DNA from: a virus
Taxonomy: Duplodnaviria; Caudoviricetes
IMG/VR virus record: IMGVR_UViG_3300009071_000002
Span: 1 to 55,495 of that record
Length of the DNA: 55,495 nucleotides
Direction: 5' to 3' (one strand)
The first letter of the stretch is position 1; each line of letters opens with the position of its first letter. Made by a program: the position numbers and the translations under genes. Shown piece after piece: positions 549-16,832 of this stretch. Under the pieces are notes generated by a model that saw only the letters and a program-made list of their open reading frames with translations, made no database searches and was not told the DNA's origin.

Positions 549-1580
549 CTATACTGCCAATGATTCTAGAGTTTGCCATGCCTGACTATCCAATGCGTTG
601 CGGACTAGGATTTCCCTATCCTTTTGGACATTAGCTTTCTGGCTACCTTTTCTACCCATGCTAATTGACTTTAATTCGCCCTTATCATTGACAGACTCAT
701 AGCTTTCATCAGTGTGCGTTGACCAATGTGTTAAAGCATTATATAACGCCCAGATTGTCTTGCCTAGACTAGCTTGCTCCTGTTCATATCTGTACAGCAA
801 GTAATCTGATAATCTGGTATTAACTAGCTTAGTATCTATGACAGTTGGACTAACAATATCACCAAGAGTTTCTACAGTTTTACTATCTTTTCTACAGATA
901 GAATGCGCCAGAAATAATGCCACTTGTTTATCGGTTAATTTAGCATTGCTCCACAATTGGAACTTCTCGGTTTGATTGGTAAAAACATCAAGTGTACTAG
1001 ATATTTTAGACAAGGCGGAATTGACGTTTAATCCAGAAGTGTGTTTTCTCCTCTCGTGGTAAAACTTTTGACCTCCGAACACTAGCGTATTTAAACAAAG
1101 ACTACGGTATGCACCTGTAAAGGTCTGGAATGACCAAGCACCATCTATAGAGTTAAAGATATCGGAACGTAGACAAACTTCATCACCATCTTTGACTTTC
1201 ATAGTGTGGTCTAGAAAATGCACTGTTCTCCTAGTCTTTGCACCCTTATCCCAGAGTTGGTCTATGACTTGAACATTGGACTGCCCTATATCACTAGTTA
1301 GAAGTTTTTCCGTGTGTTTCCTGTACAAGTCAATATGCGGAACTAACTTATACTTGTTAGAGTGGTTTCCCATAAAGTCCCCTGTATCAGAGCGAATGAC
1401 TGCCATTTTGCCATCTACTCTATGTTGCATATCATTATGAAAGTAATGCATACTCACAGGCTCAACTCCAAAGTCAAATAGACTCATGTCATTCAAATCA
1501 TTGTGTTCATACATTTCTGGCAAGATATGACCAGACTCCATAGCAATATCCGCTTTTGGTTTCATTAAATCGTAAGGCAT
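549..1580 (-). CDS. DUF932-family (phage/plasmid early) protein
   Basis: Motifs SNKYKLVPH, NSIDG..F....G.YR..C.N and TIWALYNALTHWSTH resemble DUF932/DUF945 proteins. Confidence 0.7.
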   Translation of the reverse strand: MPYDLMKPKADIAMESGHILPEMYEHNDLNDMSLFDFGVEPVSMHYFHNDMQHRVDGKMAVIRSDTGDFMGNHSNKYKLVPHIDLYRKHTEKLLTSDIGQSNVQVIDQLWDKGAKTRRTVHFLDHTMKVKDGDEVCLRSDIFNSIDGAWSFQTFTGAYRSLCLNTLVFGGQKFYHERRKHTSGLNVNSALSKISSTLDVFTNQTEKFQLWSNAKLTDKQVALFLAHSICRKDSKTVETLGDIVSPTVIDTKLVNTRLSDYLLYRYEQEQASLGKTIWALYNALTHWSTHTDESYESVNDKGELKSISMGRKGSQKANVQKDREILVRNALDSQAWQTLESLAV

Positions 1581-1671
1581 GTTTTTTCTCCCGTTGTGTT
1601 AAGTTATTATAAAAAGTGGTTCTCCACTGTACTTATAGTTTCATAGATATTATGTACATGCAAACTATTTA

Positions 1672-1848
1672 TTATTTATTTTTTTTATTGTTATTCTGTA
1701 CAGAAACAGATGCGTGAGAAAGATTTGCGTGGGAAATTAAATTATCCTCTACAACAACCTGCCTAGCTACACTATCTTCCTGTACAATAACAATACGTTT
1801 TTTAATGGGTTTGGCTGACATTATTTTAGCTGACAATTTCTTACTCAT
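1672..1848 (-). CDS. Hypothetical protein
   Basis: ORF; likely start MSKKL at 1848 overlapping the stop of the upstream gene. Confidence 0.55.
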   Translation of the reverse strand: MSKKLSAKIMSAKPIKKRIVIVQEDSVARQVVVEDNLISHANLSHASVSVQNNNKKNK

Positions 1849-2059
1849 AATATCTAGTCCACGTTTCCTGTACAAGGTCGTACACACTATTCTCACTATA
1901 CTCATCGTTTAGCTTTAAATCCTTGTACTTATTGGTTGACAAAAGTTCAATAGCTAAAGAGTAAATGTCAGAAAAATCCCTCTCTTGCTTGACAAGTTCC
2001 TCTACCTCACATTGAAAATCTGTTTCCATGTCCAGAATATCATTGGTTAGTTTGTTCAT
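1841..2059 (-). CDS. Hypothetical acidic protein
   Basis: ORF; AGGAGG RBS before MNKLT at 2059. Confidence 0.7.
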   Translation of the reverse strand: MNKLTNDILDMETDFQCEVEELVKQERDFSDIYSLAIELLSTNKYKDLKLNDEYSENSVYDLVQETWTRYYE

Positions 2060-2588
2060 GGTGTTCCTCCTGTACAACCTTGTAAGACTCTTTTAAATAC
2101 CACATTGGCATAGGCCTTGACTTTTCCCATTTAGCTATGTTTTTCTTATCGTTGACGTAGTAGCATCTGTATGCCCTAACAGCATTGTTATGTATACGCA
2201 AATGGCTACATTTATATTCGTCTGGCATACACTGTGGGTGGGGTGTACCACTGTTATGTACAGAGTCAAACATAGTGGCATGTACCTTATCCAAATCCAT
2301 TATAACCTGCTGACATTTATGTATTTTGTTATACCTCCTAGTGTACTCAAAGCATAACTCCATACCATGATGCCAAAGCCACTCATAGTTTTCTGCACTA
2401 TCTCCTGTCCATAGTGTACAGGGGTGGTTTTTGTGTGCTTCTCTATAGGGTACTTTATCTCCTAGTCCATACCTGTGCCAAACAGAGCAAAGCATTTGTG
2501 CCGTCTCTAGTGGCATCTTGACAACATGCTTATCACACTGCATTTGTGCTGATATTATAGGGCATTCGTCTAGTACGAATATGTTCAT
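2040..2588 (-). CDS. Pyrimidine-dimer DNA glycosylase-like protein (T4 endonuclease V related)
   Basis: N-terminal MNIF.LD..P..SA..CDKHVVKM.LE.AQML and H.NHPC..W motifs typical of this marine phage family. Confidence 0.7.
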   Translation of the reverse strand: MNIFVLDECPIISAQMQCDKHVVKMPLETAQMLCSVWHRYGLGDKVPYREAHKNHPCTLWTGDSAENYEWLWHHGMELCFEYTRRYNKIHKCQQVIMDLDKVHATMFDSVHNSGTPHPQCMPDEYKCSHLRIHNNAVRAYRCYYVNDKKNIAKWEKSRPMPMWYLKESYKVVQEEHHEQTNQ

Positions 2589-2872
2589 CTGTACAGCACT
2601 CCCAATTTAGACAACACATCTAATTCTTTTTCTGTCATCTCTTGTACTTTATGTACTGTTATCCAATCATTATTATAATCTTCATAGGTATTAGTATCTT
2701 CGTTAAAGTTTTCTTCCATGTAATCATCTTCACCTGTATACGTTTCAAGTATCATATCTTTATCCGTAATAGACTTAGCATCTTCATAGTGTGCTATACT
2801 ATAGTTATTAAACCATGAATGCTCAAAATATTCAGAGTCCCCAGATTTTATTTTAAATGTTACAAATAGCAT
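2585..2872 (-). CDS. Hypothetical protein (95 aa)
   Basis: ORF with GAGG RBS, coupled to neighbours. Confidence 0.7.
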   Translation of the reverse strand: MLFVTFKIKSGDSEYFEHSWFNNYSIAHYEDAKSITDKDMILETYTGEDDYMEENFNEDTNTYEDYNNDWITVHKVQEMTEKELDVLSKLGVLYR

Positions 2873-2873
2873 A

Positions 2874-3038
2874 TCAATGTCCTCTCGGTGGTTGTAAGTT
2901 ATCTTTTTCTTTTAGTACAGCAAAGTCTACTGTGTATATCCACGTTGCACTATCCTCTTGTACTCCATGTATACTTCTATGTTCTACTACAGGGCAAGTG
3001 TCAAGCCAATCCATAAATGTTTTCTGTACATCTTCCAT
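2874..3038 (-). CDS. Hypothetical protein (54 aa, not in ORF track): MEDVQKTFMDWLDTCPVVEH...
   Basis: Read by hand; fills the gap between neighbours, TAATG start/stop overlap, GAGGAG RBS. Confidence 0.7.
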   Translation of the reverse strand: MEDVQKTFMDWLDTCPVVEHRSIHGVQEDSATWIYTVDFAVLKEKDNLQPPRGH

Positions 3039-3214
3039 TAGCTATTCTCCTCTTCTTCTATTTCTTGAAGCCATTGATTAAAAGAATTTTCTATATCACT
3101 ATCCATTTCATGATTTAACTGTACCATTTTAGGATTATCACTCCACTCTGCATATATTTTATAGCTTACTATATGTCGTGGCACTGTCGGTATGGTGTTT
3201 ATATCTCTACTCAT
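3038..3214 (-). CDS. Hypothetical protein
   Basis: ORF; GGAGGAG RBS before MSRDIN. Confidence 0.7.
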   Translation of the reverse strand: MSRDINTIPTVPRHIVSYKIYAEWSDNPKMVQLNHEMDSDIENSFNQWLQEIEEEENS

Positions 3215-3602
3215 TGTCGTACTCCTCCCCTTCACTATAGGATTGATTGTCTAGGTCTTCTGTCTGTACAGTAGTAAGATGGTCTTTTAGTTCCTGTATA
3301 GCTTCGTCAATCTTATCATAGGCTTTCATTGCACTTTGCGGTGATAGCGGAATATGCAGTTTAGCATCTGTTAAAATACTTATTACTAAATCTATCACTG
3401 TGGCACTATTTACTTTAGGTTTGGTTTTCTTATAAAAAGATGCTTCTGTAGATGGGGCATCTCCTGTATAGATAGTTTCGTTATCTCTATGACCATACCA
3501 CTCAACATCCCCTCCTGACTCTACAATACAGCCCATAGGTGCTTCATCACAGTTTGGCCAAGAAGGACACCCTAAGTGTTTATCAATATGTTTGCCCATC
3601 AT
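3207..3602 (-). CDS. Hypothetical protein with Cys-containing N-terminus (HLGCPSWPNCD..P.GC)
   Basis: ORF coupled to neighbours. Confidence 0.7.
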   Translation of the reverse strand: MMGKHIDKHLGCPSWPNCDEAPMGCIVESGGDVEWYGHRDNETIYTGDAPSTEASFYKKTKPKVNSATVIDLVISILTDAKLHIPLSPQSAMKAYDKIDEAIQELKDHLTTVQTEDLDNQSYSEGEEYDNE

Positions 3603-3760
3603 ACCTTCCTCTTCTGTTCGGTTATATGTACAGAACCATTCTTTATATTAACGTCTATTCTTTTTCCTTTACCTAAGTAGTAGCCAATTCTTTTGTTCAT
3701 CTTAATCATATCCTGTTCAGTTTGTACAGCAATGACTTCATGTATTTTAGTTTTTTTCAT
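3599..3760 (-). CDS. Hypothetical basic protein
   Basis: AAGGAGG RBS before MKKTK at 3760; TTGACA on the minus strand at 3806-3811. Confidence 0.65.
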   Translation of the reverse strand: MKKTKIHEVIAVQTEQDMIKMNKRIGYYLGKGKRIDVNIKNGSVHITEQKRKV

Positions 3761-3821
3761 GGTGTCCTCCTTTTCTACAATAACTCTTTCACAGTTATAA
3801 AACATTGTCAACCCCTTAGAC

Positions 3822-3859
3822 AAAAAAAAAAGAGCAGTCTAATTAAAGACTACCCTTTT
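3822..3859 (-). terminator. Intrinsic terminator
   Basis: Minus strand AGGGTAGTCT-TTAATT-AGACTGCTCT stem (with G:U pairs) followed by a long T-run. Confidence 0.75.
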
Positions 3860-4034
3860 ATATATAGGCTAGAACTCGGACTCTAAAGCTGTTCAGTTCT
3901 AATTAAGTGTATTTACCTAGAATTTCCTAACACACCTATAATATTATTCTGTACAGGTAACTTATCGGAAAGTAGCTACCTTTCAAGGATATTATTTAAT
4001 TGACAATCCTTATCTTTCATCAACCCTGTACAAG

Positions 4035-4346
4035 TTATAATGAAGAAACAGGTATATCTCTGTCTAAATCTGCTGACAAAGGTGTTTCTCCGTACTCTCC
4101 TTCTTCTAGTCGGTAGTGATAGACACCACCTAGCCATTTTCCAATGACATTTTTTTTACCATAGTTTTTCTTTCGCAAAGTTCTTATACCCGCTGACGTT
4201 CCTGTTTCAAGATAGCCAATTCTTTTTGACACTTCTTGTACAGAATGCCAATATCCGTCTGACAATACGTCAAGTATTCTCTCTGACATTCCTCTGCGTT
4301 TGTGGTAATTCTTTTTCTCTTCCTGTACATCTTCAGTCATCATCAT
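4035..4346 (-). CDS. Winged helix-turn-helix DNA-binding protein
   Basis: ILDVLSDGYWHSVQEVSKRIG...TSAGIRTLRK...YHYRL fits a wHTH pattern. Confidence 0.65.
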   Translation of the reverse strand: MMMTEDVQEEKKNYHKRRGMSERILDVLSDGYWHSVQEVSKRIGYLETGTSAGIRTLRKKNYGKKNVIGKWLGGVYHYRLEEGEYGETPLSADLDRDIPVSSL

Positions 4347-4686
4347 TTCCTTTCCAAACATTTGGATTATCTGCCCTAACTAACCCTTTGTACCAAGCCT
4401 TTATAATACTTCCTTTGTCCTCTCCATAATCTACTTTATGCTGTTGATGTTTTAGATTAGACTCTTCCACTACAGCATCATAAGCCTTATCTAATTTGGT
4501 AATATCAGAATAAGTAATGTGTTCTACTCCACTATCATTAATGTCTGATACAAGACTTTTTACTTGATTGACAAGTGTTAGTTGTGCATCTGTTATTATA
4601 GGGATTTCTTTCTCTTTCTTTTTCGCCATGTCTTCCTCCTCCTTTAATTTTAGTTCTTTGTTAATCCACTCTGAAAAAGTGTTCAT
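4333..4686 (-). CDS. Hypothetical protein
   Basis: ORF with AGGAG RBS; alternative internal start MAKKK. Confidence 0.7.
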   Translation of the reverse strand: MNTFSEWINKELKLKEEEDMAKKKEKEIPIITDAQLTLVNQVKSLVSDINDSGVEHITYSDITKLDKAYDAVVEESNLKHQQHKVDYGEDKGSIIKAWYKGLVRADNPNVWKGNDDD

Positions 4687-4722
4687 ACTTTATGCTCCTG
4701 TTATTTATAGTTGTCAAGTTAT

Positions 4723-4977
4723 TTATGTAGCTTCACCCCACACTTCGTACTTAGCAATGTCTTCATCTGTTAACATATCTTGCTCAATACAAAGCCTACT
4801 AATACTTCTGATAGCTATTCGTGGGTGCAATCTCTTTTCCTGTTCCGTCATTTTTTCAAGAGTAATTATACATTCATCATGTACCATAGGAGTTAAGTTT
4901 ATATATTTTTCCATATCATCTACAGTGCTACAAACTTTTAAACAGTAGCCAATAATGGCATAATAAAATATTTCCAT
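4723..4977 (-). CDS. Hypothetical protein (84 aa)
   Basis: ORF, TAATG coupling. Confidence 0.65.
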   Translation of the reverse strand: MEIFYYAIIGYCLKVCSTVDDMEKYINLTPMVHDECIITLEKMTEQEKRLHPRIAIRSISRLCIEQDMLTDEDIAKYEVWGEAT

Positions 4978-5318
4978 TATTTTAAATCCACAAGATTATA
5001 AATGTTTCCTGTATTGCCAACAAATCTTTTTATGAGTTGGTTGCCACAGCTTATCTCTACAATGGTATTAAGATTTATGTTCCTGTATCCCTGACTTTTC
5101 ATATCATATACTGTTAAGTACCTATCTTTATTGTTAACATTTATGCCATCTTTTAAATGTTTCTTGACTCCAAGTTTACAATTCATTTCCCTAACTTCGC
5201 CATTCTTTTTGACAAACTTAGCTTTAAATATTTTTTGGCCTACCATGTTTTTAATTACAGGGGATACCAGTGCTTCAGTGTATAGTTTCATCGTCATCTT
5301 CCTCCCATTCAAGTTCAC
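4977..5318 (-). CDS. SH3/Sm-like fold phage protein
   Basis: F.KKNGE.R.M....G...L and V.D.....YR.INL motifs of phage SH3-fold proteins; true start probably near 5291. Confidence 0.55.
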   Translation of the reverse strand: MNLNGRKMTMKLYTEALVSPVIKNMVGQKIFKAKFVKKNGEVREMNCKLGVKKHLKDGINVNNKDRYLTVYDMKSQGYRNINLNTIVEISCGNQLIKRFVGNTGNIYNLVDLK

Positions 5319-5466
5319 TAGCCATTGTCATGTACAGACCGACTAATGTATTTAACATTATTCCTATCATATCTAATTTAGGTAAACCTAATAACATATA
5401 CTTACTATATACTTCAAGTAATTCTTTAATAAAACTTTCAGTTGCTTTTATATTAGTGTTTTCCAT
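5275..5466 (-). CDS. Hypothetical protein (63 aa), first gene of the leftward operon
   Basis: ORF with AAGGG RBS just downstream of a promoter. Confidence 0.6.
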   Translation of the reverse strand: MENTNIKATESFIKELLEVYSKYMLLGLPKLDMIGIMLNTLVGLYMTMASELEWEEDDDETIH

Positions 5467-5490
5467 ATATGTTCCCTTTAAGTTTAACTA

Positions 5491-5519
5491 AAGGTAATAC
5501 TTATAATTTTTTCTGTCAA
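5491..5519 (-). promoter_or_regulatory. Leftward sigma70 promoter TTGACA-N17-TACCTT
   Basis: Perfect -35, 17-nt spacer, at the divergence point. Confidence 0.65.
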
Positions 5520-5532
5520 GTACTTTTTTTTG

Positions 5533-5561
5533 TTGACATAGTTTTTATAAAAAGTTAGTAG
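5533..5561 (+). promoter_or_regulatory. Rightward sigma70 promoter TTGACA-N17-TAGTAG for the replication operon
   Basis: Perfect -35, 17-nt spacer, upstream of AAGGAG RBS and primase. Confidence 0.6.
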
Positions 5562-5586
5562 TGGTAGAGAGAAGGAGAAAAATACT

Positions 5587-6369
5587 ATGGTTGGAGAAAC
5601 TGATGTTGCTACATTTGTTAAGGCACTATCTATACCCACTGATGAAACTTACAGAGGCGATTGTCCTGTTTGTCATCGTAAAAATACTTTCAATGTTACT
5701 AATACTACTGGCAGGCTGTTGTATAATTGTTACCATGCTGACTGTACAGTTGGGGGCACTACAAAAACAGGCGACCTTATACAGACATCGTCTAGTACAA
5801 AAAATCAAAAACCTCAACGAGTAGACCTTTCTGTATATAACAAGCAGTGGGTGGGGCTAGACCGTAGCCAAAGAGTTGTTGATTACTTAAAGTCTGTACA
5901 GGCTTACCATGCTTACCAAAATAAATTTGCTGACATTCGTTATGATGTAAAGGAAGACCGTTGTGTGTTTCTTGTGTACAAGGACAAGACATTGGTTGAT
6001 GCAGTTGGTAGGTCGCTGACAAATTCTAAACCAAAATGGAAAAGGTATGCATCTTCCCGTATTCCTTTTGTGACAAAAAACCAGAGTGACAATCTTGTCA
6101 TTGTAGAGGATTGTGCTTCGGCTTGTGCGTTGACAATATCTGGAGTTAGGGGCATGGCTTTGATGGGTACGAATCTCTTGACAGAATATTTAAAATATTG
6201 TAAGGGGTATAATCGGGTCACCATTGCATTAGACAAAGACGCATCAAAAAAAGCAATGAAGATGGTACACGAATTATCTATTCATGTACGGACAAAGTTG
6301 GTGCTGTTAGAACGAGATGTAAAAAGGTGGAGTACAGAACAAATAAGGGAGAAGTTCAATGTCACTTGA
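5587..6369 (+). CDS. DNA primase (zinc ribbon + TOPRIM)
   Basis: CPVC...CYHADC zinc finger; VIVED and IALDKD TOPRIM motifs. Confidence 0.9.
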   Translation: MVGETDVATFVKALSIPTDETYRGDCPVCHRKNTFNVTNTTGRLLYNCYHADCTVGGTTKTGDLIQTSSSTKNQKPQRVDLSVYNKQWVGLDRSQRVVDYLKSVQAYHAYQNKFADIRYDVKEDRCVFLVYKDKTLVDAVGRSLTNSKPKWKRYASSRIPFVTKNQSDNLVIVEDCASACALTISGVRGMALMGTNLLTEYLKYCKGYNRVTIALDKDASKKAMKMVHELSIHVRTKLVLLERDVKRWSTEQIREKFNVT

Positions 6370-7570
6370 GAAACAAATACTATCAGCGTGTTTATCCAAT
6401 GAGTTTTATAAAGATACAGCAGAGGTTGTGTCTACAGAGATGTTTGCCAATGGTGTGGGAACAATTTTTGACACCATCAGTTTTGCACAACAGAAGTACG
6501 AGAGTGATTTAGATGTAAACACTTTGATACAGCTACACAGGAATAAATATCCTGCACTACCAGAATCATCAAGAGAGCCTATAGAGGAAGTTATAAAAGA
6601 CCTCAGTAAGTTTATGCCAAGCAACAAGATTATACTAAAAGATTTAATCATTGACTTTTGGAAGAAAGACAAGGCACATAAGATTAGTGACTTATCCGCT
6701 GACATTTGGTTAGGCAACAGTGACGACTTTACTGTACTGAGAACTTTAGTTGACACGGCTATAGAGAAAGCACCAGAAGATGAAGGGAACTTCCAAGAAG
6801 TGAAAGATGACATAAAAGATTACATAGATGGTTGGGATCAAGGTTTTGAATTTAAGTTTGAGTTGCAATCATTGGCTGACAAAATCAGTGGTGCGGGTAG
6901 AGGAAACTTAGGGATTATATTTGCTAGACCAGAGACAGGGAAGACAACCTTCTGTACATACATGGTTGCAGAATATATCCGACAAGGATTTAAGGTAGCC
7001 TATTTTGCTAACGAAGAACCCGGAAGATTGGTTAAAGGCAGAGTGTTCTCCGCATATCTTAAACGATCTATTGATGAGATGAAGAAGAACTTAGATAATT
7101 CTATGACTGTGTACAAGAACGAGATAGAACCAAACCTAAAGTTATTGGAAGGTAGAGGTATTACTTTATCAGAAATAGAAAAATTTATTGACATACATAA
7201 ACCTGATGTGGTAATGGTGGATCAGTTAGACAAAGTAGTCATCAACGGTAACTTTGCTAGGACAGATGAAAAGTTACGGGCATTGTATGAGGGGGCAAGA
7301 ACGATAGCTAAAAAACAACAAGTATTATTTTGGTCAGTGTCTCAAGCATCCTACGATGCACAGGGTAGACAAGAGGTAGACTTTAGTATGTTGGAAAATA
7401 GTAGGACAGGTAAGGCTGCAGAAGCTGACATCATTGTAGGTATAGGAAAGAATTACGGTGAGGAGGAAGATTACATTCGTCATCTTTGTGTATCTAAGAA
7501 TAAACTTAACGGGTGGCATGGGACAGTAACATGTTCTATTGATATACACAGGGCGAGATACGAGTTATGA
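6359..7570 (+). CDS. DnaB-like (SF4) replicative helicase
   Basis: Walker A ARPETGKTT, VVMVDQLD, SQ and AEADIIVG motifs. Confidence 0.93.
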   Translation: MSLEKQILSACLSNEFYKDTAEVVSTEMFANGVGTIFDTISFAQQKYESDLDVNTLIQLHRNKYPALPESSREPIEEVIKDLSKFMPSNKIILKDLIIDFWKKDKAHKISDLSADIWLGNSDDFTVLRTLVDTAIEKAPEDEGNFQEVKDDIKDYIDGWDQGFEFKFELQSLADKISGAGRGNLGIIFARPETGKTTFCTYMVAEYIRQGFKVAYFANEEPGRLVKGRVFSAYLKRSIDEMKKNLDNSMTVYKNEIEPNLKLLEGRGITLSEIEKFIDIHKPDVVMVDQLDKVVINGNFARTDEKLRALYEGARTIAKKQQVLFWSVSQASYDAQGRQEVDFSMLENSRTGKAAEADIIVGIGKNYGEEEDYIRHLCVSKNKLNGWHGTVTCSIDIHRARYEL

Positions 7571-7797
7571 TATTAAAAGCTGACGGATTTGATGATGCGA
7601 TATTGGGCTTAGGCCGAAGATGTTCACAACCTGATCTGTTAGTTTATGATGTTGACAAATGTGTAGCCATACTTATGAAAGATGGAATGACAGACGAAGA
7701 AGCTATGGAATATTTTGAGTACAACGTGGTAGGATCATGTATGGGTGAAGGAACACCTATCTTTCTGTACAGAGGAGTGGAGGATATAGAACTATGA
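7567..7797 (+). CDS. Conserved phage hypothetical protein
   Basis: ADGFDDAILG...EA.EYFEYNVVG...GTP motif familiar from marine phages. Confidence 0.75.
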   Translation: MILKADGFDDAILGLGRRCSQPDLLVYDVDKCVAILMKDGMTDEEAMEYFEYNVVGSCMGEGTPIFLYRGVEDIEL

Positions 7798-8012
7798 AAA
7801 AAAGAATACACGTAAATCAGCACGTTATAAGAAGCAACAAAAAGAACAACGAGAATAACCCTGTAATAACTGTTAAAACTTACCAAGACAATACCTATGG
7901 TCACGAAGTAAGCATATTAGGAAACAGCAAGGTTGTGTACAGGCCAGATAAACCCCTGTCTTGTGGGGCAAAAGTATGGATAGAAACGGATGCGGAAGTG
8001 GTGGTGAAATGA
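7794..8012 (+). CDS. Conserved phage hypothetical protein
   Basis: IHVNQHVIR.N.K...KPLSCGAKVWIET motif; ATGA coupling. Confidence 0.75.
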   Translation: MKKRIHVNQHVIRSNKKNNENNPVITVKTYQDNTYGHEVSILGNSKVVYRPDKPLSCGAKVWIETDAEVVVK

Positions 8013-8323
8013 CAAAAAAAAAGACGGGCTATAGGTATTTTAAAACTAATCGTAAAGGAGAGCCTGTATTTAGAAGAAATACGGATCAAACTTTATGTGA
8101 GGTAGAAACATACTTAAAAGAATCTAATATTAATTACGAATATAGATTAGGAGCTACTGCATTAAAAATTTATAATAAAGAAGAGATACCCTTTATATAT
8201 TATTTTACTACTGGAAGATGGAAGCGGTACAATGGGAGAAAGTTTCCCCACTACCACAGCAACTCTGTACAAGATTTTGCTATAAAATATTTAAATAGGA
8301 AGTTTGATGATAACCGTTCTTGA
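8009..8323 (+). CDS. Hypothetical protein
   Basis: ORF; ATGA-coupled start MTKKK at 8009. Confidence 0.65.
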   Translation: MTKKKTGYRYFKTNRKGEPVFRRNTDQTLCEVETYLKESNINYEYRLGATALKIYNKEEIPFIYYFTTGRWKRYNGRKFPHYHSNSVQDFAIKYLNRKFDDNRS

Positions 8324-10406
8324 CATAGAAACAACATATAAAAAAGATGAGGCAGGTAAGCTAGACCTTGATCCTTATACAGGAAACATGTTAGTGTCTG
8401 TGGGGTACAGTGCTGTAGGTTCTGATATAATAGCTCCCTTTACAGAGAAAAAGATTTATCGCCCTGACAGTGAGGGCTACCTCTGTTTTACCCACACAGA
8501 AAAAGAACCGACAGAGGATGGCTTTGCTGTACTGCAGAAAGTTCTGGATAATACGGAAGTTTTAGTGGGCCATAACATTAAGTTTGACTTGAAGTGGCTC
8601 CTTGCTTGTAACTTTACCTATACAGGAAAGCTATACGACACGATGATAGCTGAGTATGTTATACACGGTGGAGATAAAGTTGCTCTGTCTTTGTCTGAGT
8701 CCGCTAAGAGATATGATTTAGATGAGAAACGTACCGATTTAACTGCACAGTACATGAGAGATGGGGTATCTTTTGACTATATACCTTGGGATATTGTAGA
8801 AGAGTATGGCAGGGCTGATGTAGAAGTAACAAAACAATTGTATCTTGCACAGCAAGAGGCAGTAAAAGATGGGCTTGCACCCACTGTAATTTTAATGAAT
8901 GAGATGTGTCAGGTTCTTACCGAGATGGAAAACACAGGTATGAAAGTTGATGTGGATTCTCTCACTAAAATTAGAGAAGAATATAAGAATGAATACAATG
9001 AGTTACATGAATTTCTTGATGGAGAAGTTAAACGTACTATGGGGGATACTCCTATAAATTTAGACAGCCCAGAGGACAGGTCTAAAGTTTTATACAGCAG
9101 AGCAGTGACTGATAAAAAATTCTGGGCGAGTACATTCAATTTAGGATATGAACAGTATGGTAGTACAAAGAGAAAGAAAAGAGTTCGCAAGTTAGGTAAA
9201 GATGATTTTGTTAGGAAGGTAAGAACTTATACAAAAATAGTTCCCCACACAGAGTCCCACCAATGCGGTTCCTGTAAAGGGAGGGGATACTTTAACCCAC
9301 TAAAGAAAGATGGCACAACAGGTAAGGCTAAAAGAATTTGTAAAACTTGTAATTCTGATGGCATAGTATTTAAGTCTACAGGAGAAGTTGGTGGCTTTAA
9401 ACTTGTGCCGAGAGATGCTTATGATGTCAGTACACACGGCTTTAAAACAGACAGACCAACATTAGAGAACTTATCTATGTCTGCCAATGACGAGCAAAAG
9501 AAATTTATCAGTGCCTATATAAAATACAATGCTATAGGTACATACTTGAGAACATTTGTTGATGGTATAGAGAAGGGATTAGATAGTAAAGGTTTTATAC
9601 ACCCTCACTATATGCAATGCGTTACGGCTACAGGAAGACTATCTTCTCGTAATCCAAACTTTCAGAACATGCCAAGAGGTACAACTTTCCCTGTGAGGGC
9701 TTGTGTTGTATCACGATGGGAGGGAGGAAAGATATTGGAGGGAGACTACAGTCAATTAGAATTTAGAGTTGCAGGCTTTCTTGCACAGGACAAACAGGTG
9801 TATGCTGATGTGAGGAAAGGTTTTGATGTGCATAGCTTTTCTGCAGAAGCATTGGGTGTATCTAGACAGGAAGCAAAAGCACACACATTTAAACCACTAT
9901 ACGGAGGTACATATGGAACAGAAAAAGAAGTTGCGTACTACGACCTTTTCAAGGCCAGATATTCAGATGTTGCTAAATGGCACGTCTCTTTACAAAACGA
10001 AGCGATTAAGACGAAAAAGATCACCCTTCCTTCTGGTAGGATTTATCATTTTCCTCATGTTCGTAGGAACTTTCATGGCGGTTCTACACACGCTACCGCC
10101 ATAAAAAACTATCCTGTACAAGGATTTGCTACCGCAGATCTGCTCCCGCTTGCTCTTATAAATTTAAGACAAATTTTGTTTGACAGCGACATGCAGTCTG
10201 TGGTATGTAACACAGTACATGATTCAATTGTCCTTGATGTTTTTCCAAGCGAGGAGAAAAAGGCAATTGAAATTTTAACGGAATCCATGTTGAGTATCAA
10301 GGATGAAGCTATGAAACGATACAATATTGACTATGACATGCCGGTGGGTATTGAATTAAAAGTAGGTAAAGACTGGCTTGACATGGATGAAGTTTTAACA
10401 CTATAA
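8304..10406 (+). CDS. polA: Family A DNA polymerase with 3'-5' exonuclease and inserted DnaJ-type zinc finger
   Basis: Exo motifs LDIET and GHNIKFD; pol motifs TATGRLSS, DYSQLEFR, AKAHTFKPLYG, VHDS; insert CGSCKGRG...CKTCNSDG. Confidence 0.96.
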   Translation: MMITVLDIETTYKKDEAGKLDLDPYTGNMLVSVGYSAVGSDIIAPFTEKKIYRPDSEGYLCFTHTEKEPTEDGFAVLQKVLDNTEVLVGHNIKFDLKWLLACNFTYTGKLYDTMIAEYVIHGGDKVALSLSESAKRYDLDEKRTDLTAQYMRDGVSFDYIPWDIVEEYGRADVEVTKQLYLAQQEAVKDGLAPTVILMNEMCQVLTEMENTGMKVDVDSLTKIREEYKNEYNELHEFLDGEVKRTMGDTPINLDSPEDRSKVLYSRAVTDKKFWASTFNLGYEQYGSTKRKKRVRKLGKDDFVRKVRTYTKIVPHTESHQCGSCKGRGYFNPLKKDGTTGKAKRICKTCNSDGIVFKSTGEVGGFKLVPRDAYDVSTHGFKTDRPTLENLSMSANDEQKKFISAYIKYNAIGTYLRTFVDGIEKGLDSKGFIHPHYMQCVTATGRLSSRNPNFQNMPRGTTFPVRACVVSRWEGGKILEGDYSQLEFRVAGFLAQDKQVYADVRKGFDVHSFSAEALGVSRQEAKAHTFKPLYGGTYGTEKEVAYYDLFKARYSDVAKWHVSLQNEAIKTKKITLPSGRIYHFPHVRRNFHGGSTHATAIKNYPVQGFATADLLPLALINLRQILFDSDMQSVVCNTVHDSIVLDVFPSEEKKAIEILTESMLSIKDEAMKRYNIDYDMPVGIELKVGKDWLDMDEVLTL

Positions 10407-10421
10407 ACCGAAGGAGAAATT

Positions 10422-11279
10422 ATGATGTCAAATGATGTTGTAACGAATACACCAAGTGTAGTGCCGTCACTAAAGAACATGTCAGTGGCAGAAATTGCGG
10501 CATTGACTGGGCAAGAAGTAAGTAGTAATGAAAGTCAGAGCCTTCCTCGCTTTGCCATTAATCATGGTGAAGAAGACAATGAAGGTAGGAGCATTCCTCG
10601 TGGGGAGTTCTCTTTAAAATTACCTGACGGTGTTACTGCCTATGCAAAGGAAGCTCATCTACGAATATTTTTTAGGTTGTTTACCTACAGTAGGTGGGAT
10701 GCAGAGCAGGGAACTTTTGGTAGCCAAACTATACAGGCACCAAATTTAAGTGCTGACTTTTATGATACAGAAGGTGGTATCCGGTGTGGGAGGCTGACCA
10801 AAGATCAAGCCGATGGTTTAGCTAAAGACAGTCCAGAAATGATGTTACACAAAAGTGTGAAGTGTAATCAGATTCTGTACAACACAGTGCAGTTGGTTAA
10901 TCCTGTAGATGCAGACGGTAACAAAGTAGATATGCCTGATGAAGTACCTTCCGTTTGGTATGTTAGAGGCTCTGGTTTTATGCCTGTCAGTGACCATATA
11001 AAAATGATTGACAGACAGAAAAAGATTATGTGTACGTCTGTTAACAAAGTAACTACCTCAAGAAAGAAGATGGGTGGTAATTCTTACTATGTCCCAGTTA
11101 TGTCTACACTTAAATACGTGGACATAAAAGATAGTGATCAAGAATTAATCGCTAAGTTTTTTGAGACCAAAGAAGCCATCAATAATAAAGTGATGGGCCA
11201 GTGGAGAGAACAAAAAGAGAAGAAAGCTAAATTAGGAGACTTGTCCGATTTTGGTGAAGTTCTTAATGCTACAGGATAG
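10422..11279 (+). CDS. Probable single-stranded DNA-binding protein
   Basis: Position after polA, size and strong RBS; function inferred from synteny only. Confidence 0.5.
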   Translation: MMSNDVVTNTPSVVPSLKNMSVAEIAALTGQEVSSNESQSLPRFAINHGEEDNEGRSIPRGEFSLKLPDGVTAYAKEAHLRIFFRLFTYSRWDAEQGTFGSQTIQAPNLSADFYDTEGGIRCGRLTKDQADGLAKDSPEMMLHKSVKCNQILYNTVQLVNPVDADGNKVDMPDEVPSVWYVRGSGFMPVSDHIKMIDRQKKIMCTSVNKVTTSRKKMGGNSYYVPVMSTLKYVDIKDSDQELIAKFFETKEAINNKVMGQWREQKEKKAKLGDLSDFGEVLNATG

Positions 11280-11284
11280 ATAGT

Positions 11285-12190
11285 TTGTCTAATCCTATCT
11301 TAATGAAAGTACAGGGATTACTAGATCGTGCCATGAAAGAAGGTATTGATCTAGACCCTGAACTTTTAGAAAACTTTAAAAATGATTGTGGTGATGCCTT
11401 AGTCAAACAACTGTCTCGTGGTAAAAGTGATTACTCGTTACGGATGAGTGGCTTGGGCAAACCCATGTGCCAACAATGGCATGACAAAAACGAATCACCT
11501 AAAGAGACACAATATAATTCTATCATGCGGTTTTTATTTGGTGACATCATAGAAGCTATAGCTATGGTAGTTTTAAAATCAGCTAACGTAAATATAGAAT
11601 CAGAACAAGAGAGAGTTAATTTAGATTTAGATGTGTGTGAACTTAACGGTACATTAGATGTTGTTATTGATGGCAAAGTGTGGGACATAAAATCTGCATC
11701 CCCGTATGCTTTCTCTAAGAAATTTGGTGGAGAGTTTGGTGGATACAACAAAGTAAAACAAGATGATACCTTTGGGTATTTGATGCAAGGATACCTGTAC
11801 AGCAAAGCAAAGAACATGGACTTTGGTGGGTGGATTGTTGTAGACAAAGCTTCTGGTGAATGGGCAGTATGTGAAGCACCAGATTACCAAGAGGAAGACT
11901 CTGTAGAGCAGTTGGCTAAGGCAAAATCTAATGCAAAAACAATGTTACAAGACAAACCATTAAAGAAAGAATTTAAAGATAAAGAAGAAACATTCCGTGT
12001 ACAGCACGGGAAAAGAAAAGGTGAGATAATTGCTACAGGAAACAGAGTTATGCACACGGTGTGTGGCTATTGTGATTATAAAGCACAGTGTTGGCCTACT
12101 GCACAACTACATAAAAAGGTAGGAACACAGGCAACGCAACGACCTCTTGTTTGGTATACAAAATTAAAGAAGAGAGAAATAGAGGTATGA
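11285..12190 (+). CDS. PD-(D/E)XK (Cas4/RecB-like) exonuclease
   Basis: LRMS.LG..C, G.LD....VWDIKS, Q..LY and C.YC..K..CW motifs. Confidence 0.85.
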   Translation: MSNPILMKVQGLLDRAMKEGIDLDPELLENFKNDCGDALVKQLSRGKSDYSLRMSGLGKPMCQQWHDKNESPKETQYNSIMRFLFGDIIEAIAMVVLKSANVNIESEQERVNLDLDVCELNGTLDVVIDGKVWDIKSASPYAFSKKFGGEFGGYNKVKQDDTFGYLMQGYLYSKAKNMDFGGWIVVDKASGEWAVCEAPDYQEEDSVEQLAKAKSNAKTMLQDKPLKKEFKDKEETFRVQHGKRKGEIIATGNRVMHTVCGYCDYKAQCWPTAQLHKKVGTQATQRPLVWYTKLKKREIEV

Positions 12191-12579
12191 TTTATTTATC
12201 TACAGAAGTAACCATAGGAGATAGCTACATCAACGAAGGTGTATACTTTGGTTACCAAGAGTGTGATAAAACATTTGGTGGTGATAGTATTGTAAAAGAA
12301 CTACGCAACAGACCCAATGGCATACCAATCCGAATGACTAAAACATTTGATCTTGATGAACCTTGGGGTGATGATAGATTTGAAGAACATAAGGAGAAGA
12401 TAGATCATGATTTAGATATATTGGCTGTACAAGCAAAAGCAAGAAACAGTCTAGTAGTATTACACTGGACAGGCATAGAAGAACAACGAGGCATTCTACG
12501 GGAGAATGCACCTAAAACTTTTAAGTACTTTAACGATAAGTTTGAGGATATAATACATAAAAACATGCCGAGGGTATAA
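12187..12579 (+). CDS. Hypothetical protein
   Basis: ORF; ATGA-coupled start at 12187. Confidence 0.7.
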   Translation: MIYLSTEVTIGDSYINEGVYFGYQECDKTFGGDSIVKELRNRPNGIPIRMTKTFDLDEPWGDDRFEEHKEKIDHDLDILAVQAKARNSLVVLHWTGIEEQRGILRENAPKTFKYFNDKFEDIIHKNMPRV

Positions 12580-12950
12580 TGGTACTAAGACATCATGGCT
12601 ACCGATCAGACTTTGAATTGTCTATCGCTGTAGCTTTAAATAGAAAAAATGTAAAATTTCAATATGAATCGGAGAAAATAGATTATGTTAGGCATTCTAC
12701 TTATAATCCTGACTTTGTTATAGAGGGAAAGAACTTCTATATAGAAGCAAAAGGACTTTTTACTACAGCAGATAGGGGTAAACATCTGTTAATTAAAAAA
12801 CAACACCCCGAAATTGATCTAAGATTTTTGTTTATGAGAGCAAGTAATAAACTTTATAAAGGTTCTAAAACTACTTACGCTGGGTGGTGTGAACGCTATG
12901 GTTTTAAATGGTGTGAAGGTTTTTTACCACAGGAATGGTTAGATGAATAA
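12579..12950 (+). CDS. T7 endonuclease I-like Holliday junction resolvase
   Basis: YRS..E, Y.PDF, IEAKG, DR.KHL.IK.QHP..D.RF and KTTYA.W motifs. Confidence 0.92.
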   Translation: MVLRHHGYRSDFELSIAVALNRKNVKFQYESEKIDYVRHSTYNPDFVIEGKNFYIEAKGLFTTADRGKHLLIKKQHPEIDLRFLFMRASNKLYKGSKTTYAGWCERYGFKWCEGFLPQEWLDE

Positions 12951-13296
12951 GGAAGATTTAAACGGTTACAGAAAGAAGCTCCCTTTAGGTATGTATGTTA
13001 TACTGCTTAAACCTGATGGGGAGGATGGTGTTAGTCTTGCTGTAATAGATACACATAATATTGGTGATAATCATGTTGATCTATCATACATTCTTTCTAG
13101 GGGTGTACTGTCTTTACTGGCCAATGATATGGATATGATAAAGGAAAGAGGGCAGAGTGTTATATTGGAGGAGATGAGAAACGAAACGAAACTCCCAATA
13201 ATTGATAGCCTTATGGACAGAACAAAACCTACCGCACGTGTACAGAAAGATAATATTGTGTCTATATTTGGGGAGGATACAGATGATAAGCAGTGA
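12943..13296 (+). CDS. Hypothetical protein
   Basis: ORF coupled to neighbours. Confidence 0.7.
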   Translation: MNKEDLNGYRKKLPLGMYVILLKPDGEDGVSLAVIDTHNIGDNHVDLSYILSRGVLSLLANDMDMIKERGQSVILEEMRNETKLPIIDSLMDRTKPTARVQKDNIVSIFGEDTDDKQ

Positions 13297-13588
13297 TAGT
13301 ATACCAGAAGGACTGGAGTATAAGATGAAAAAAAGACAACAGTATGATTCACATGATGATATGATAAAACAATCTGTAAAAGGAAAAAATAGACAGGTAG
13401 GTGGCAATCACTACATAGATTTTGAGATTATGCCTATAGAATATATTTCTAAAAATAAACTTGACTTCCTAGAGGGAAATATTATAAAGTATATCTCTCG
13501 TCATAAAAAGAAAAACGGGGCAGAAGATATAAAAAAAGTTATACATTACGCAGAATTAATATTAGAATTAGAATATGGAGAAAATTAG
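13283..13588 (+). CDS. DUF3310 (SaV-like) protein
   Basis: QVGG.HY....I.P.EY...F.EGN.IKY..R..K.G.ED..K..HY motif. Confidence 0.85.
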   Translation: MISSDSIPEGLEYKMKKRQQYDSHDDMIKQSVKGKNRQVGGNHYIDFEIMPIEYISKNKLDFLEGNIIKYISRHKKKNGAEDIKKVIHYAELILELEYGEN

Positions 13589-15511
13589 ATGGCATCATTA
13601 TTAGGGGGAAATTATTTACCAACAGAATATCAGGCGTTTATACATATGTCTAGATACTCTCGGTGGCTAGAGAAAGAAGGAAGAAGAGAAAGTTGGGGGG
13701 AAACAGTAGATAGACTTATATCTTTTTTTCGCCAAAACGTAGAAGGAATAGATGAAAAGTCTTGGGAGGACATGGAGGAAGCTGTACTGTCATTATCAGT
13801 TATGCCTTCTATGAGAGCATTGATGACCGCAGGTAAAGCTTTAGAGAGAGAAAACATTGCTGGCTATAACTGTTCGTATATACCGATAGATAGCCCAAGG
13901 GCTTTTGATGAAGTCCTGTACATACTGATGAATGGTACAGGAGTAGGGTTCTCTGTAGAGAGACAGTATGTTGATAAGTTGCCTACTGTGCCAGATGTAG
14001 AGTTTGAACATACAGAGGATGTGGTGTCTGTTGTAGATTCTAAAGAAGGTTGGGCAAAGGGGTTTAGAGATTTAGTATCTTATCTGTATACAGGAAGAGT
14101 TCCTAAAATTAATGTGTCAAAGATACGACCTGCAGGTACAAGACTTAAAACATTTGGTGGTAGAGCCAGTGGTCCACAACCGTTGGTAGACCTATTTGAC
14201 TTTACTGTAGAGAAATTTAAAGGTGCCAGAGGTAGAAAACTCTCCTCTATGGAGTGTCATGATATAGTTTGTAAGACAGGAGAGGTAGTAGTAGTGGGTG
14301 GTGTACGTAGATCAGCCCTCATCTCTTTGTCAAACTTATCCGACCAACGAGTGCGTGCGGCTAAATCTGGTGCTTGGTGGGAAACAAATCCAGAGAGAGC
14401 ACTGGCTAATAACTCTGTTGCTTATACAGAGAAACCAGACGCAGGTATCTTTATGAAAGAATGGCTGTCTTTGTACGAGAGTAAATCTGGTGAGAGGGGT
14501 ATCTTTAGCAGAGCTTCTGCACAGGCAAAGGCTGCTGAGAATGGTAGAAGAGATGCCAGTTGGGATTTTGGTACTAATCCATGTAGTGAAATTATACTAC
14601 GGCCTAATCAATTTTGTAATCTTACAGAGGTCGTGGTACGTGCCGGTGATACGGTGGCTACTCTCAGTAAGAAAATACAGATTGCTACATTGTTAGGCAC
14701 AATACAATCTACCTTTACTAACTTTGGCTACCTAAGAAAAAGATGGCAAGACAATACAGAAGAAGAGAGATTACTCGGTGTATCTCTTACAGGTATTATG
14801 GATAGCACACTGTTAAATGGCAAAGAAGGTGGGTTAGAAAAAAGATTAGAAACTTTAAGGGGTGTTGCTGTAGAGGCTAATAAATATTGGGCAGATAAAT
14901 TTGGTATAAACCAAAGCACAGCTATTACTTGTGTCAAACCTTCTGGTACGGTTAGTCAATTGGTAGACAGTGCCAGCGGTATACATGCAAGACACAACCC
15001 TTATTATATAAGAACAGTACGGGGAGATAATAAAGATCCCCTCACTGAATTTTTAATTAACTCTGGTATACCTAGTGAGCCAGATGTTATGAAACCAGAA
15101 CATACTACAGTATTCTCCTTTCCGATGAAAGCACCTATAGGTTCTGTTTGTAGAAACGATATGTCTGCAATAGAACAGCTTGAGTTATGGAAGATTTATG
15201 CAAAACACTGGTGTGAGCATAAGCCTTCTGTTACCATTTCGGTAAAGGAAAATGAGTGGGTACCTGTTGGTGCGTGGTGTTGGGAAAATTTTGAATACCT
15301 TAGTGGTGTCTCCTTTCTCCCCTTTTCCGATCACACGTATCAGCAGGCTCCCTATCAAGATATAGATGAGAAAGAATACAAGAAACTTGTAAAAAAAATG
15401 CCAGCAACTTTAGACTGGCGTAAATTACAGGACTTTGAAAAAGAAGATAACACAAAGGGGTCACAGGAATTAGCCTGTACTGCCGGAGTGTGTGAGTTAG
15501 TAGACATATAG
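13589..15511 (+). CDS. nrdJ: Class II adenosylcobalamin-dependent ribonucleotide reductase
   Basis: YNCS, GTGVGFS, VVVGGVRRSA, TNPCSEI, TCVKPSGT and C-terminal C.AG.CE; no NrdB partner in the genome. Confidence 0.93.
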   Translation: MASLLGGNYLPTEYQAFIHMSRYSRWLEKEGRRESWGETVDRLISFFRQNVEGIDEKSWEDMEEAVLSLSVMPSMRALMTAGKALERENIAGYNCSYIPIDSPRAFDEVLYILMNGTGVGFSVERQYVDKLPTVPDVEFEHTEDVVSVVDSKEGWAKGFRDLVSYLYTGRVPKINVSKIRPAGTRLKTFGGRASGPQPLVDLFDFTVEKFKGARGRKLSSMECHDIVCKTGEVVVVGGVRRSALISLSNLSDQRVRAAKSGAWWETNPERALANNSVAYTEKPDAGIFMKEWLSLYESKSGERGIFSRASAQAKAAENGRRDASWDFGTNPCSEIILRPNQFCNLTEVVVRAGDTVATLSKKIQIATLLGTIQSTFTNFGYLRKRWQDNTEEERLLGVSLTGIMDSTLLNGKEGGLEKRLETLRGVAVEANKYWADKFGINQSTAITCVKPSGTVSQLVDSASGIHARHNPYYIRTVRGDNKDPLTEFLINSGIPSEPDVMKPEHTTVFSFPMKAPIGSVCRNDMSAIEQLELWKIYAKHWCEHKPSVTISVKENEWVPVGAWCWENFEYLSGVSFLPFSDHTYQQAPYQDIDEKEYKKLVKKMPATLDWRKLQDFEKEDNTKGSQELACTAGVCELVDI

Positions 15512-15663
15512 TGAAGTGTGCTAAACCTATAATAGCTCTAGAGGATGCTGGGTTAATAAGAAAAGTTATAGCTTATTACATAAAGTATGCATCGCCCCCA
15601 GATAAAGAAGTAGAAGAAAAACTTCTAAATCTATTTCACAGATTAGGAAGATTGGAAAAGTAA
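15511..15663 (+). CDS. Hypothetical protein (50 aa, GTG start, not in ORF track)
   Basis: Read by hand; fills the gap between nrdJ and 15665. Confidence 0.55.
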   Translation: MKCAKPIIALEDAGLIRKVIAYYIKYASPPDKEVEEKLLNLFHRLGRLEK

Positions 15664-15664
15664 G

Positions 15665-16830: not shown

Positions 16831-16832
16831 GC

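Follow-up and report, generated by a model that had tools for sequence, protein, structure and literature searches.

A clade-specific array of TGTACA palindromes along the early arm of an HMO-2011-type marine podovirus, with a candidate winged-helix reader

Why a phage should carry one six-base palindrome, TGTACA, tens of times along one arm of its genome is the question raised by IMG/VR record IMGVR_UViG_3300009071_000002. The window analysed here is the whole record of 55,495 nt, of which the first and last 123 nt are identical, indicating a circular assembly. It is the complete, circularly assembled genome (55.4 kb) of an HMO-2011-type marine podovirus. This assignment was made because its DNA polymerase shares 44.8% identity with that of Pelagibacter phage HTVC033P, which makes this pelagiphage the nearest cultured relative, and 37-40% identity with those of HMO-2011 and the CRP roseophages. 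The HMO-2011-type phages rank among the most abundant marine viruses, as stated in a passage of Qin et al. (PMC9038755). A first-pass annotation of the window, made from the letters alone, had proposed that the TGTACA copies form a dispersed array of binding sites for a phage or host protein.

An exact-match search returned every copy listed in that annotation, namely 27 between 791 and 8266 and a further two at 55003 and 55352 (see Table 1), and its estimate of about 3 copies expected in 8.3 kb from base composition was also correct. Over the whole window 56 copies were found, compared with 22.7 +/- 4.8 (maximum 33) in 100 dinucleotide-preserving shuffles. Positions 1-8300 hold 27 copies against 4.2, 6.5 and 10.9 expected under Markov models of order 1, 2 and 3, respectively; the order-4 expectation of 24 merely reflects the enrichment of the pentamers TGTAC and GTACA. 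The density is regional rather than uniform genome-wide, with 29 of the 56 copies lying in 54901..8300, an 8.8-kb arm representing 15.8% of the circular genome (binomial P = 5e-10). This corresponds to 3.31 copies per kb on the arm and 0.58 per kb elsewhere, and the stretch at 17-27 kb, which had been noted as sparse, contains three. The densest part of the arm is 1653-4324, with 16 copies in 2.7 kb. Among the 24 palindromic hexamers of equal base composition, the runner-up in 54901..8300 has 8 copies.

Two smaller concentrations were detected beyond the arm. The plus-strand genes of 8304-15883 contain seven copies, compared with 2.3 expected from synonymous shuffling and 3.2 from codon permutation, and a patch at 25777-28056 contains six, compared with 1.5 and 0.8, respectively, a number reached in none of 400 shuffles. 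The structural block at 39-48 kb has one copy where 1.4-2.5 were expected, a depletion that is not significant. No clustering of TGTACA was seen at the terminase genes (47721-49343, and the weak small-subunit match at 52875-53291).

It had been claimed that selection acts on the DNA rather than on the encoded proteins, with a codon-preserving null named as the check. Two such nulls were applied to the 20 curated open reading frames (ORFs; 7620 nt), which contain 24 copies. Shuffling synonymous codons inside each gene gave 7.76 +/- 2.24 copies with a maximum of 15 in 1000 shuffles, and permuting whole codons gave 3.99 +/- 2.01 with a maximum of 10. As the mean of the synonymous shuffle (7.8) exceeds that of the permutation (4.0), the protein sequences lean towards dipeptides capable of hosting the site, a bias which would be the expectation for selection on a DNA word. 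These figures bear on the possibility that the array has no function and is a by-product of composition, of codon or dipeptide usage, or of the shared ancestry of early genes. The pentamers and their order-4 expectation do carry part of the excess, and all of the TGTACA-rich relatives described below form one clade. However, the 24 copies exceed the maximum of the synonymous null, the next composition-matched palindrome falls far short at its 8 copies, and accessory inserts carry sites too. With the retention of density among relatives also against it, an array without function is considered extremely improbable.

The sites are read in all frames, as the annotation had also observed, with Cys-Thr in 3 cases, Leu/Val-Tyr-X in 9 and Val-Gln/His in 12, while 3 lie outside curated ORFs (two sites in overlapping ORFs were counted in two frames). 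The frequent context CTGTACA(G) was likewise recovered, with C before the site in 17 of 27 cases, G after it in 15, both in 8 and neither in 3. The two flanks are independent of each other, the 8 cases with both comparing with ~9.4 expected. Reading the 29 arm sites in both orientations gave 58 half-sites, with C at position -1 in 34 and a pyrimidine at -2 in 45, and no information further out. The resulting consensus is YC-TGTACA-GR; neither the side of the core nor the direction of the gene alters the flank preference. The survival of the excess under codon-preserving nulls, the use of all frames and the symmetry of the flanks in either gene direction uphold the claim of selection on DNA rather than protein. 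They show TGTACA to be a DNA word selected for its presence and number on one arm, independently of coding and of gene direction.

Since the flanks are symmetric and do not follow gene direction, the pattern speaks for a twofold-symmetric protein that recognises duplex DNA and argues against both a compositional artefact and an RNA signal. In the latter case UGUACA in early transcripts would be the target of an endoribonuclease or RNA-binding protein that times mRNA decay, on the model of T4 RegB acting at GGAG. Transcripts of both divergent early units would contain the palindrome, and the arm consists of presumed early and middle genes, both of which favour such a role. However, a signal of this kind should be polar along the transcript, palindromy (a property of 64 of the 4096 hexamers) is without obvious use in single-stranded RNA, and sites occur in non-coding gaps and in the late-arm patch too. 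An RNA signal is therefore regarded as very improbable.

The selection is also for the exact word. The 18 one-mismatch variants of TGTACA total 65 copies against 60.2 expected, compared with 27 against 4.2 for the word itself; the one-mismatch words are not enriched, and selection is therefore for the exact hexamer. Such exactness would fit recognition by an enzyme of the restriction/modification type, most plausibly an orphan TGTACA methyltransferase of the host, whose marks would tell parental from new DNA or be sensed by a methyl-sensitive factor, much as in the Dam/GATC control of P1, Mu and oriC. A compact palindrome of 6 bp without a spacer is typical of Type II enzymes, and TGTACA is the BsrGI site. 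The location of the sites in genes, their turnover with density kept (see below), as if number outweighed place, and the signs of restriction pressure elsewhere in the genome would also suit an enzyme. On the other hand, no methyltransferase or restriction enzyme was found among the 60 ORFs of the window by Pfam scan, and such an enzyme would need to come from the host. In addition, methylation alone explains neither the enrichment nor its placement on the early arm, and the weak YC/GR flank preference is atypical of Type II enzymes. Enzyme-type recognition is seen as a serious rival to binding by a phage protein, though rather unlikely.

The palindromes avoided in the whole window form a separate observation. 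TCGA is absent (0 against 38.5 expected), as is CGCG (0 against 7.8), GCGC occurs 5 times against 17.2, and GAATTC, ATCGAT and TTCGAA do not occur; TCGA, CGCG and GAATTC are likewise absent from G001, a complete 55-kb relative assembled from loci L036, L159 and L160. This is typical restriction avoidance and is opposite to the excess of TGTACA. The array is a clear exception to the usual avoidance of short palindromes by phages, with selection for avoidance and for enrichment side by side in one genome.

A helicase search of IMG/VR returned 41 loci at 81-100% amino-acid identity, and all those covering the arm are equally rich in TGTACA. Eight long relatives have 20-24 copies in 8-12 kb, with TGTACA among their top over-represented hexamers. 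The most divergent members of the clade, available as whole or partial genomes, retain the excess, with 51 copies in G001 against 11 of the reversed control word and 41 against 7 in G002. The site map of G001 is that of the window, including the patch, which lies at the corresponding positions 25446-29358. In two complete genomes of the next lineage (polymerase ~57% identical) the counts are 16 and 23 against 9 and 13 of the control word.

Individual sites differ in their persistence. Of 24 unique sequences aligned over 2.5 kb, 21 retain site 4237, 22 site 5895 and 18 site 6144, whereas other sites are restricted to sub-lineages and one has moved by 3 nt (4321 instead of 4324). None of the 28 unique helicase sequences has lost site 6953, and its two synonymous third positions do not vary at all, against a mean third-position entropy of 0.67. 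Across all aligned DNA, window sites are kept above average hexamers in eight of eight relatives (40-68% against 20-44%, P 0.0045-0.077), as in L032 (21/31 against 43%, P=0.0045) and L039 (7/16 against 20%, P=0.025); three of the eight comparisons reach only P=0.065-0.077, and the eight are mutually non-independent. Lost sites are replaced nearby, and sites turn over with density kept at 72-85% nucleotide identity.

Outside this clade the array is missing. HTVC033P has one TGTACA in 1-8500 and HMO-2011 has none in 1-8300, with no other strongly enriched palindrome in either region. Among the examined loci with a DNA polymerase A 43-58% identical to that of the window, no comparable excess was detected, the highest being 10 against 5.6 and 4 against 1.6. 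The annotation had asked whether related phages show the same or a different palindrome in this region; the same one was found in the close relatives, and the alternative of a different one in the distant HMO-2011-type phages was not borne out. The TGTACA array is a novelty of one lineage.

The placement of the sites was also analysed. They are not in tandem, the smallest spacing in the arm being 44 nt, and 24 of the 27 lie inside ORFs. Helical phasing of the spacings (Rayleigh p ~0.02, 63 spacings) was not accepted, as many of the spacings are the same conserved pairs across relatives. A role in sigma-70 promoters was rejected, with 33 promoter-like matches in 1-9000 against 33.5 in shuffles. 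A 20-nt repeat containing the site occurs in two exact copies in the window, where 0.01 would be expected. Sites tend to lie close to gene borders, 14 of 27 being within 40 nt against 7.3 expected (P=0.006). This proximity might reflect a role in recombination, the sites being signals or microhomologies that flank exchangeable early-gene cassettes and by which a hypervariable early region is shuffled, similar to the promoter/stem-loop cassettes proposed for T4-type phages. Several breakpoints of homology with relatives do fall on sites, namely those at 1703, 1775, 2070, 2588, 3033, 3946 and 4319. In relative L013 window positions 1703-1775 are replaced by ~1.1 kb, with a TGTACA on the L013 side within ~6 nt of both breakpoints and about eight more inside (L013 positions derived from alignment offsets). 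However, in a crude blastn-breakpoint test 7 of 47 window breakpoint clusters were no more than 10 nt from a site, where 3.6 would be expected (P=0.065), and none of the nine relatives tested was significant (P 0.27-0.90), so the idea of cassette junctions was left unsupported. Sites are also kept inside the unshuffled core primase and helicase genes, and no recombinase of such specificity was found. This explanation is therefore held to be improbable.

A second motif was observed on the same arm. GCTGAC occurs 12 times on the plus strand of 1-8300 and not once on the minus strand, with 0.9 expected; nine of the 12 read GCTGACA, and the series continues where gene direction switches. Eight close relatives show this polarity too (8-12 copies against 0-2), and GTTGAC and TTGACA are plus-strand-enriched in close relatives as well. 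The polarity also extends to distant HMO-2011-type loci without the TGTACA array, namely L085 (10/2), L087 (12/3), L069 (6/0), L089 (6/0) and L102 (7/1). GCTGAC could be a Chi-like, priming or translocation signal. Nine of the 12 copies lie within 80 nt of a TGTACA, compared with ~41% by a rough Poisson estimate, which is a weak effect.

Non-transcription DNA signals of this strand-polar, conserved kind on the arm lend some weight to a role of TGTACA in replication, priming or packaging, the sites serving for loading, priming or pausing of the primase-helicase or another DNA motor. The presence of the primase, helicase and polymerase genes on the arm is in keeping with this. Known primase recognition sites are, however, trinucleotides and not palindromic, the densest stretch (1653-4324) consists of accessory early genes and not of an intergenic origin-like region, and the array is missing from related phages whose primase, helicase and polymerase are homologous. 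Only a slender chance is given to this explanation.

If a protein reads the sites, the best candidate is the product of ORF 4035-4361. The annotation had described this early ORF as a winged helix, in agreement with an AlphaFold2 model that predicts three helices followed by a beta-hairpin (mean predicted local distance difference test score, pLDDT, of 68.6, with 75-91 in the core). The best folds in the PDB were winged helix-turn-helix (wHTH) proteins of ArsR/SmtB and other types, 2kko, NolR, SmtB and CzrA, with a template modelling (TM) score of ~0.5 and E-values that are weak (5e-3 to 1e-2). Neither Pfam, HTH_5 included, nor PHROG gave a match. Only 19 close homologues (66-98% identity) were found among 5.8 billion proteins. 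In IMG/VR the gene is present mostly on contigs of the TGTACA-rich clade found via the helicase, with a few short similar fragments besides, and no relative was detected in the GTDB one-genome-per-species collection. Together with its neighbours ORFs 4333-4686 and 5275-5466 it occurs in all eight TGTACA-rich relatives whose sequence covers this part, whereas 79 other HMO-2011-type loci lack all three ORFs; this distribution is identical to that of the array. The model of ORF 4333-4686 was helical and uninformative (mean pLDDT 55.9), and the ORF had no usable match in the protein atlas. No part of the array is denser in sites or better conserved than that around the winged-helix gene. This gene is favoured because it is clade-restricted, shares the distribution of the array and has four sites in or beside it, and at the level of sequence this co-occurrence is suggestive.

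The reading preferred here is that of a clade-specific array of exact 6-bp palindromes with weak symmetric YC/GR flanks, selectively maintained, which would be read on duplex DNA by a twofold-symmetric protein. The reader would be a phage protein made early, for which the winged-helix protein is the best candidate; by binding, it would act on the entire early arm, marking, organising or damping it, and not on single promoters. We infer the protein binding, the identity of the reader and the effect alike, and a phage-encoded binder acting on the whole early arm is put forward tentatively, with somewhat less than even confidence. The interpretation given in the first-pass annotation stands in part: selection at the DNA level (codon nulls, three frames, symmetric flanks), regional density and the winged-helix fold were each supported.

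Several points weigh against this reading. The co-occurrence of the winged-helix gene and the array amounts to a single evolutionary event, and the two neighbouring ORFs, also without an assigned function, share the same distribution. Dimers of ArsR/MarR type usually read longer, spaced half-sites. Enrichment without that of one-mismatch variants is more typical of restriction/modification-type enzymes than of regulators, although exact-hexamer-only enrichment as such fits enzyme-like recognition and a regulator equally. The main divergent promoter gap (5467-5586) contains no TGTACA, and this empty gap, the position of nearly all sites inside ORFs and the unenriched variants weigh against a classical operator array. 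The Pfam scan of the 60 ORFs gave neither an integrase nor a known repressor family, and a stoperator-like immunity function is therefore unlikely.

The remote relatives of the candidate must also be counted against it. A profile search gave 423 remote homologues with a common SARLRDLRK helix, mostly without a Pfam family; among 10 that were scanned there was one sub-threshold match to HTH_5 and one to DprA_WH. The homologues share this recognition helix, and their phages are enriched for different palindromes or for none, so the winged-helix family as such does not predict an array. Of 80 IMG/VR loci fetched by the ARLRDLRK signature, 70 were scannable, and the best palindrome reached a z of at least 5 in 10 of them, compared with 0 of 40 HMO-type controls. 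This link was nevertheless rejected as support for the winged-helix protein, as GC content is high in the test set but not in the controls, and the helix is the same for CTCGAG, GGGCCC and GAGCTC. The GGGCCC excess of L183 fails the codon nulls (31 against 20.8 and 15.3). As side observations, L178 (16350 nt, GC-rich, with an integrase) has 51 CTCGAG, of which 41 lie in crude ORFs against 5.9 (synonymous) and 2.8 (permutation), in three frames, and GC-rich L184 (579-866, 7938-9438) has 17 against 3.9 and 3.4. These two phages are unrelated to that of the window; a remote winged-helix homologue is encoded in each, as it is in many phages without an array. On L173, from position 10001, a remote winged-helix homologue continues into a long fused C-terminal region, in which SPPY/SPPF occurs four times, a tetrapeptide known as motif IV of amino-methyltransferases.

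A bolder form of the preferred reading can be stated. A lytic phage might mark its whole early/replication arm with ~30 exact hexamers, read in a dose-dependent manner by a single small symmetric factor, the phage wHTH protein or a host protein, with the arm being switched, compacted or positioned as one domain. This is thought decidedly unlikely. If true, it would be a phage-scale analogue of domain marking by matS/MatP or SlmA/Noc, achieved through coding DNA and not through promoters, and the CTCGAG-dense L178 and L184 would be further instances of a general, undescribed strategy. A literature search of titles and abstract openings gave no description of in-gene palindrome enrichment in a phage early region. 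The array offers a concrete entry to the timing of gene expression in HMO-2011-type phages, since it supplies a motif and a candidate for its reader, and since natural variants exist that have or lack it.

The genome around the array is organised in two directions (see Table 1). All genes outside the plus-strand block lie on the minus strand, and from 5466 leftwards through 94 and across the junction these are small genes mostly without an assigned function. The intrinsic-terminator-like hairpin at the end of the leftward operon is conserved in the most divergent relatives, lying inside blastn matches to L036 (3781-3859, 78.8%) and L039 (3820-3859, 92.5%). The Pfam scan of the 60 ORFs gave no ParB, MatP, SlmA or Noc-like protein, no Phd/YefM-family protein was found by Pfam, the early ORFs giving no match at E up to 0.01-0.1, and no phage RNA polymerase was found among the ORFs scanned. 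The phage is probably lytic. In HMO-2011 an integrase is annotated directly upstream of the primase gene. The GC content of 37% and the ribonucleotide reductase gene fit subgroup X of the HMO-2011-type phages, whose host is given as unknown in a passage of Qin et al. (PMC9038755), and these two characters would place the window phage in that subgroup.

Some further features of the window should also be noted. About 0.8 kb at 53780-54600 is without a convincing ORF, has many C and G runs and gave no Rfam or tRNA match, as was the case for the window as a whole. It contains two near-perfect sigma-70-type promoters that diverge from each other, one leftward at 54033 (TTGACA-16-TATAAT) and one rightward at 54071 (TTGACA-16-TATACT), both inside a 36-nt inverted repeat (54005-54040 / 54064-54099). 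This region may be a non-coding RNA or a control region. Minus-strand ORFs 53288-53455 and 53448-53726 have a common Gly/Lys-rich tail, ...YAMGGG.RKAKTYG, encoded by a 55-nt direct repeat that is 80% identical (53285-53339, 53445-53499). They look like paralogous basic proteins, encoded just upstream, in the sense of transcription, of the putative small terminase gene. Strongly acidic stretches are found in the small early proteins of minus-strand ORFs 2585-2872 and 5275-5466 (...GEDDYMEENFNEDTNTYEDYNND..., and a C-terminal EWEEDDDETIH), which had no family match. Acidic early phage proteins are sometimes DNA mimics, and it may be speculated that these are as well.

Table 1. Positions of the TGTACA sites and of the other features of the window (a dot marks a feature without strand).
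Feature	Position	Strand	Remarks
Main TGTACA-rich arm, 27 exact sites	791..8271	.	Leftward small early genes, divergent promoter gap, primase, helicase; sites at 791, 1322, 1653, 1697, 1781, 1869, 2071, 2257, 2415, 2590, 3025, 3265, 3627, 3723, 3950, 4027, 4237, 4324, 5331, 5743, 5895, 5975, 6953, 7110, 7766, 7936, 8266
Continuation of arm across circular junction, 2 sites	55003..55357	.	Sites at 55003, 55352
Weaker excess in replication genes, 7 sites	10115..13922	.	Sites at 10115, 10876, 11796, 11998, 12426, 13239, 13917
Secondary patch, 6 sites	25976..27552	.	Three late-arm ORFs, function unassigned; sites at 25976, 26273, 27017, 27362, 27489, 27547
GCTGAC copies	1814-10793	+	1814, 1829, 2309, 4072, 4192, 5737, 5929, 6015, 6698, 6875, 7424, 7579, 10752, 10793
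Exact 20-nt repeat with CTGTACAG, copy 1	3937..3956	-	Non-coding gap between winged-helix gene and terminator
Exact 20-nt repeat with CTGTACAG, copy 2	54990..55009	-	Non-coding, ~40-50 nt upstream of start of ORF 54578-54952
Clade-specific predicted winged-helix protein, 108 amino acids, candidate reader	4035..4361	-	Sites 4237 and 4324 inside; 4027 and 3950 just downstream
Leftward early operon, five ORFs	4035..5466	-	5275-5466, 4977-5318, 4723-4977, 4333-4686, 4035-4361
Intrinsic-terminator-like hairpin, 13 pairs then T run	3828..3859	-	Closes leftward operon, just upstream of next gene start
DUF932 protein	549-1580	-	
Pyr_excise-like protein	2040-2588	-	PHROG "DNA binding protein"
ORF with weak WYL_2 match	4977-5318	-	Match below Pfam cut-off
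Plus-strand gene block	5587-15883	+	
Primase	5587-6369	+	Carries conserved in-frame sites
DnaB-type helicase	6359-7570	+	Carries conserved in-frame sites
DNA polymerase A	8304-10406	+	
Endonuclease I	12579-12950	+	
Ribonucleotide reductase	13589-15511	+	
Portal	43231-45342	-	
Large terminase	47721-49343	-	
Putative small terminase	52875-53291	-	Weak match

The array resembles, and differs from, several known systems. The stoperators of mycobacteriophage L5, the C1 operators of P1 and the conserved inverted repeats of phiC31 are dispersed arrays of repressor sites, which likewise consist of tens of copies of one short motif over kilobases, presumably with one phage-encoded reader for blocks of genes. 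Their units are 13-17 bp in length, whereas that of the window is an exact 6 bp, and they are mostly intergenic or promoter-proximal, in contrast to the in-gene sites and empty promoter gap described above. The L5 stoperators are oriented with transcription, while the TGTACA site and its flanks are symmetric and have no orientation. These systems also belong to temperate phages, unlike the window phage, in whose 60 Pfam-scanned ORFs no integrase or known repressor family was found, and the reader in the window is only a candidate. A second resemblance is to marks of chromosome domains, namely the matS/MatP, SlmA-binding, Noc-binding and parS/ParB sites and the KorB operators of RK2. These too are short palindromes confined to one replicon domain, often in genes, and act by the number of occupied sites. 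They are, however, 12-16 bp long with known readers, and the window is a 55-kb phage with a domain of ~9 kb and, by Pfam, no such protein.

The exact, unspaced 6-bp palindrome with near-cognates unenriched is shared with Type II and Dam/GATC-type sites. Type II sites are normally avoided by phages, whereas TGTACA exceeds expectation 4-7 times on one arm and the Pfam scan gave no gene for a cognate enzyme. In the pac site of P1, clustered TGATCA/G hexamers lie within ~160 bp at the packaging site; this is also a repeated palindromic hexamer serving as a phage DNA signal, but the sites of the window extend over ~9 kb without clustering at the terminase genes. The core hexamer itself is identical to that of the YefM-YoeB and Axe-Txe operators, in which, by a passage of PMC1802561, 5'-TGTACA-3' is bound by a small dimeric protein and palindromic flanks strengthen binding. 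The operators described there are pairs 12 bp apart, centre to centre, at one promoter (PMC1802561), in contrast to the wider minimum spacing in the window, where Pfam also gave no Phd/YefM protein.

A scan of IMG/VR for three TGTACA within ~100 nt returned at least 117 stretches. The densest among the matches listed are tandem repeats or iteron clusters in unrelated phages, without a tblastn match to the window proteins. On an unrelated viral contig, L340, about ten TGTACA-core copies are arranged in an iteron-like manner in 130 nt (126-258), and the unrelated contigs L333 (2718-2860) and L312 (4012-4154) each have seven TGTACA-core repeats at ~20-40-nt spacing. These iteron-like clusters suggest that TGTACA is the core of a protein site in other phages too. 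The array of the window is unusual as an exact hexamer written through coding DNA, and would otherwise be a dispersed protein-recognition array.

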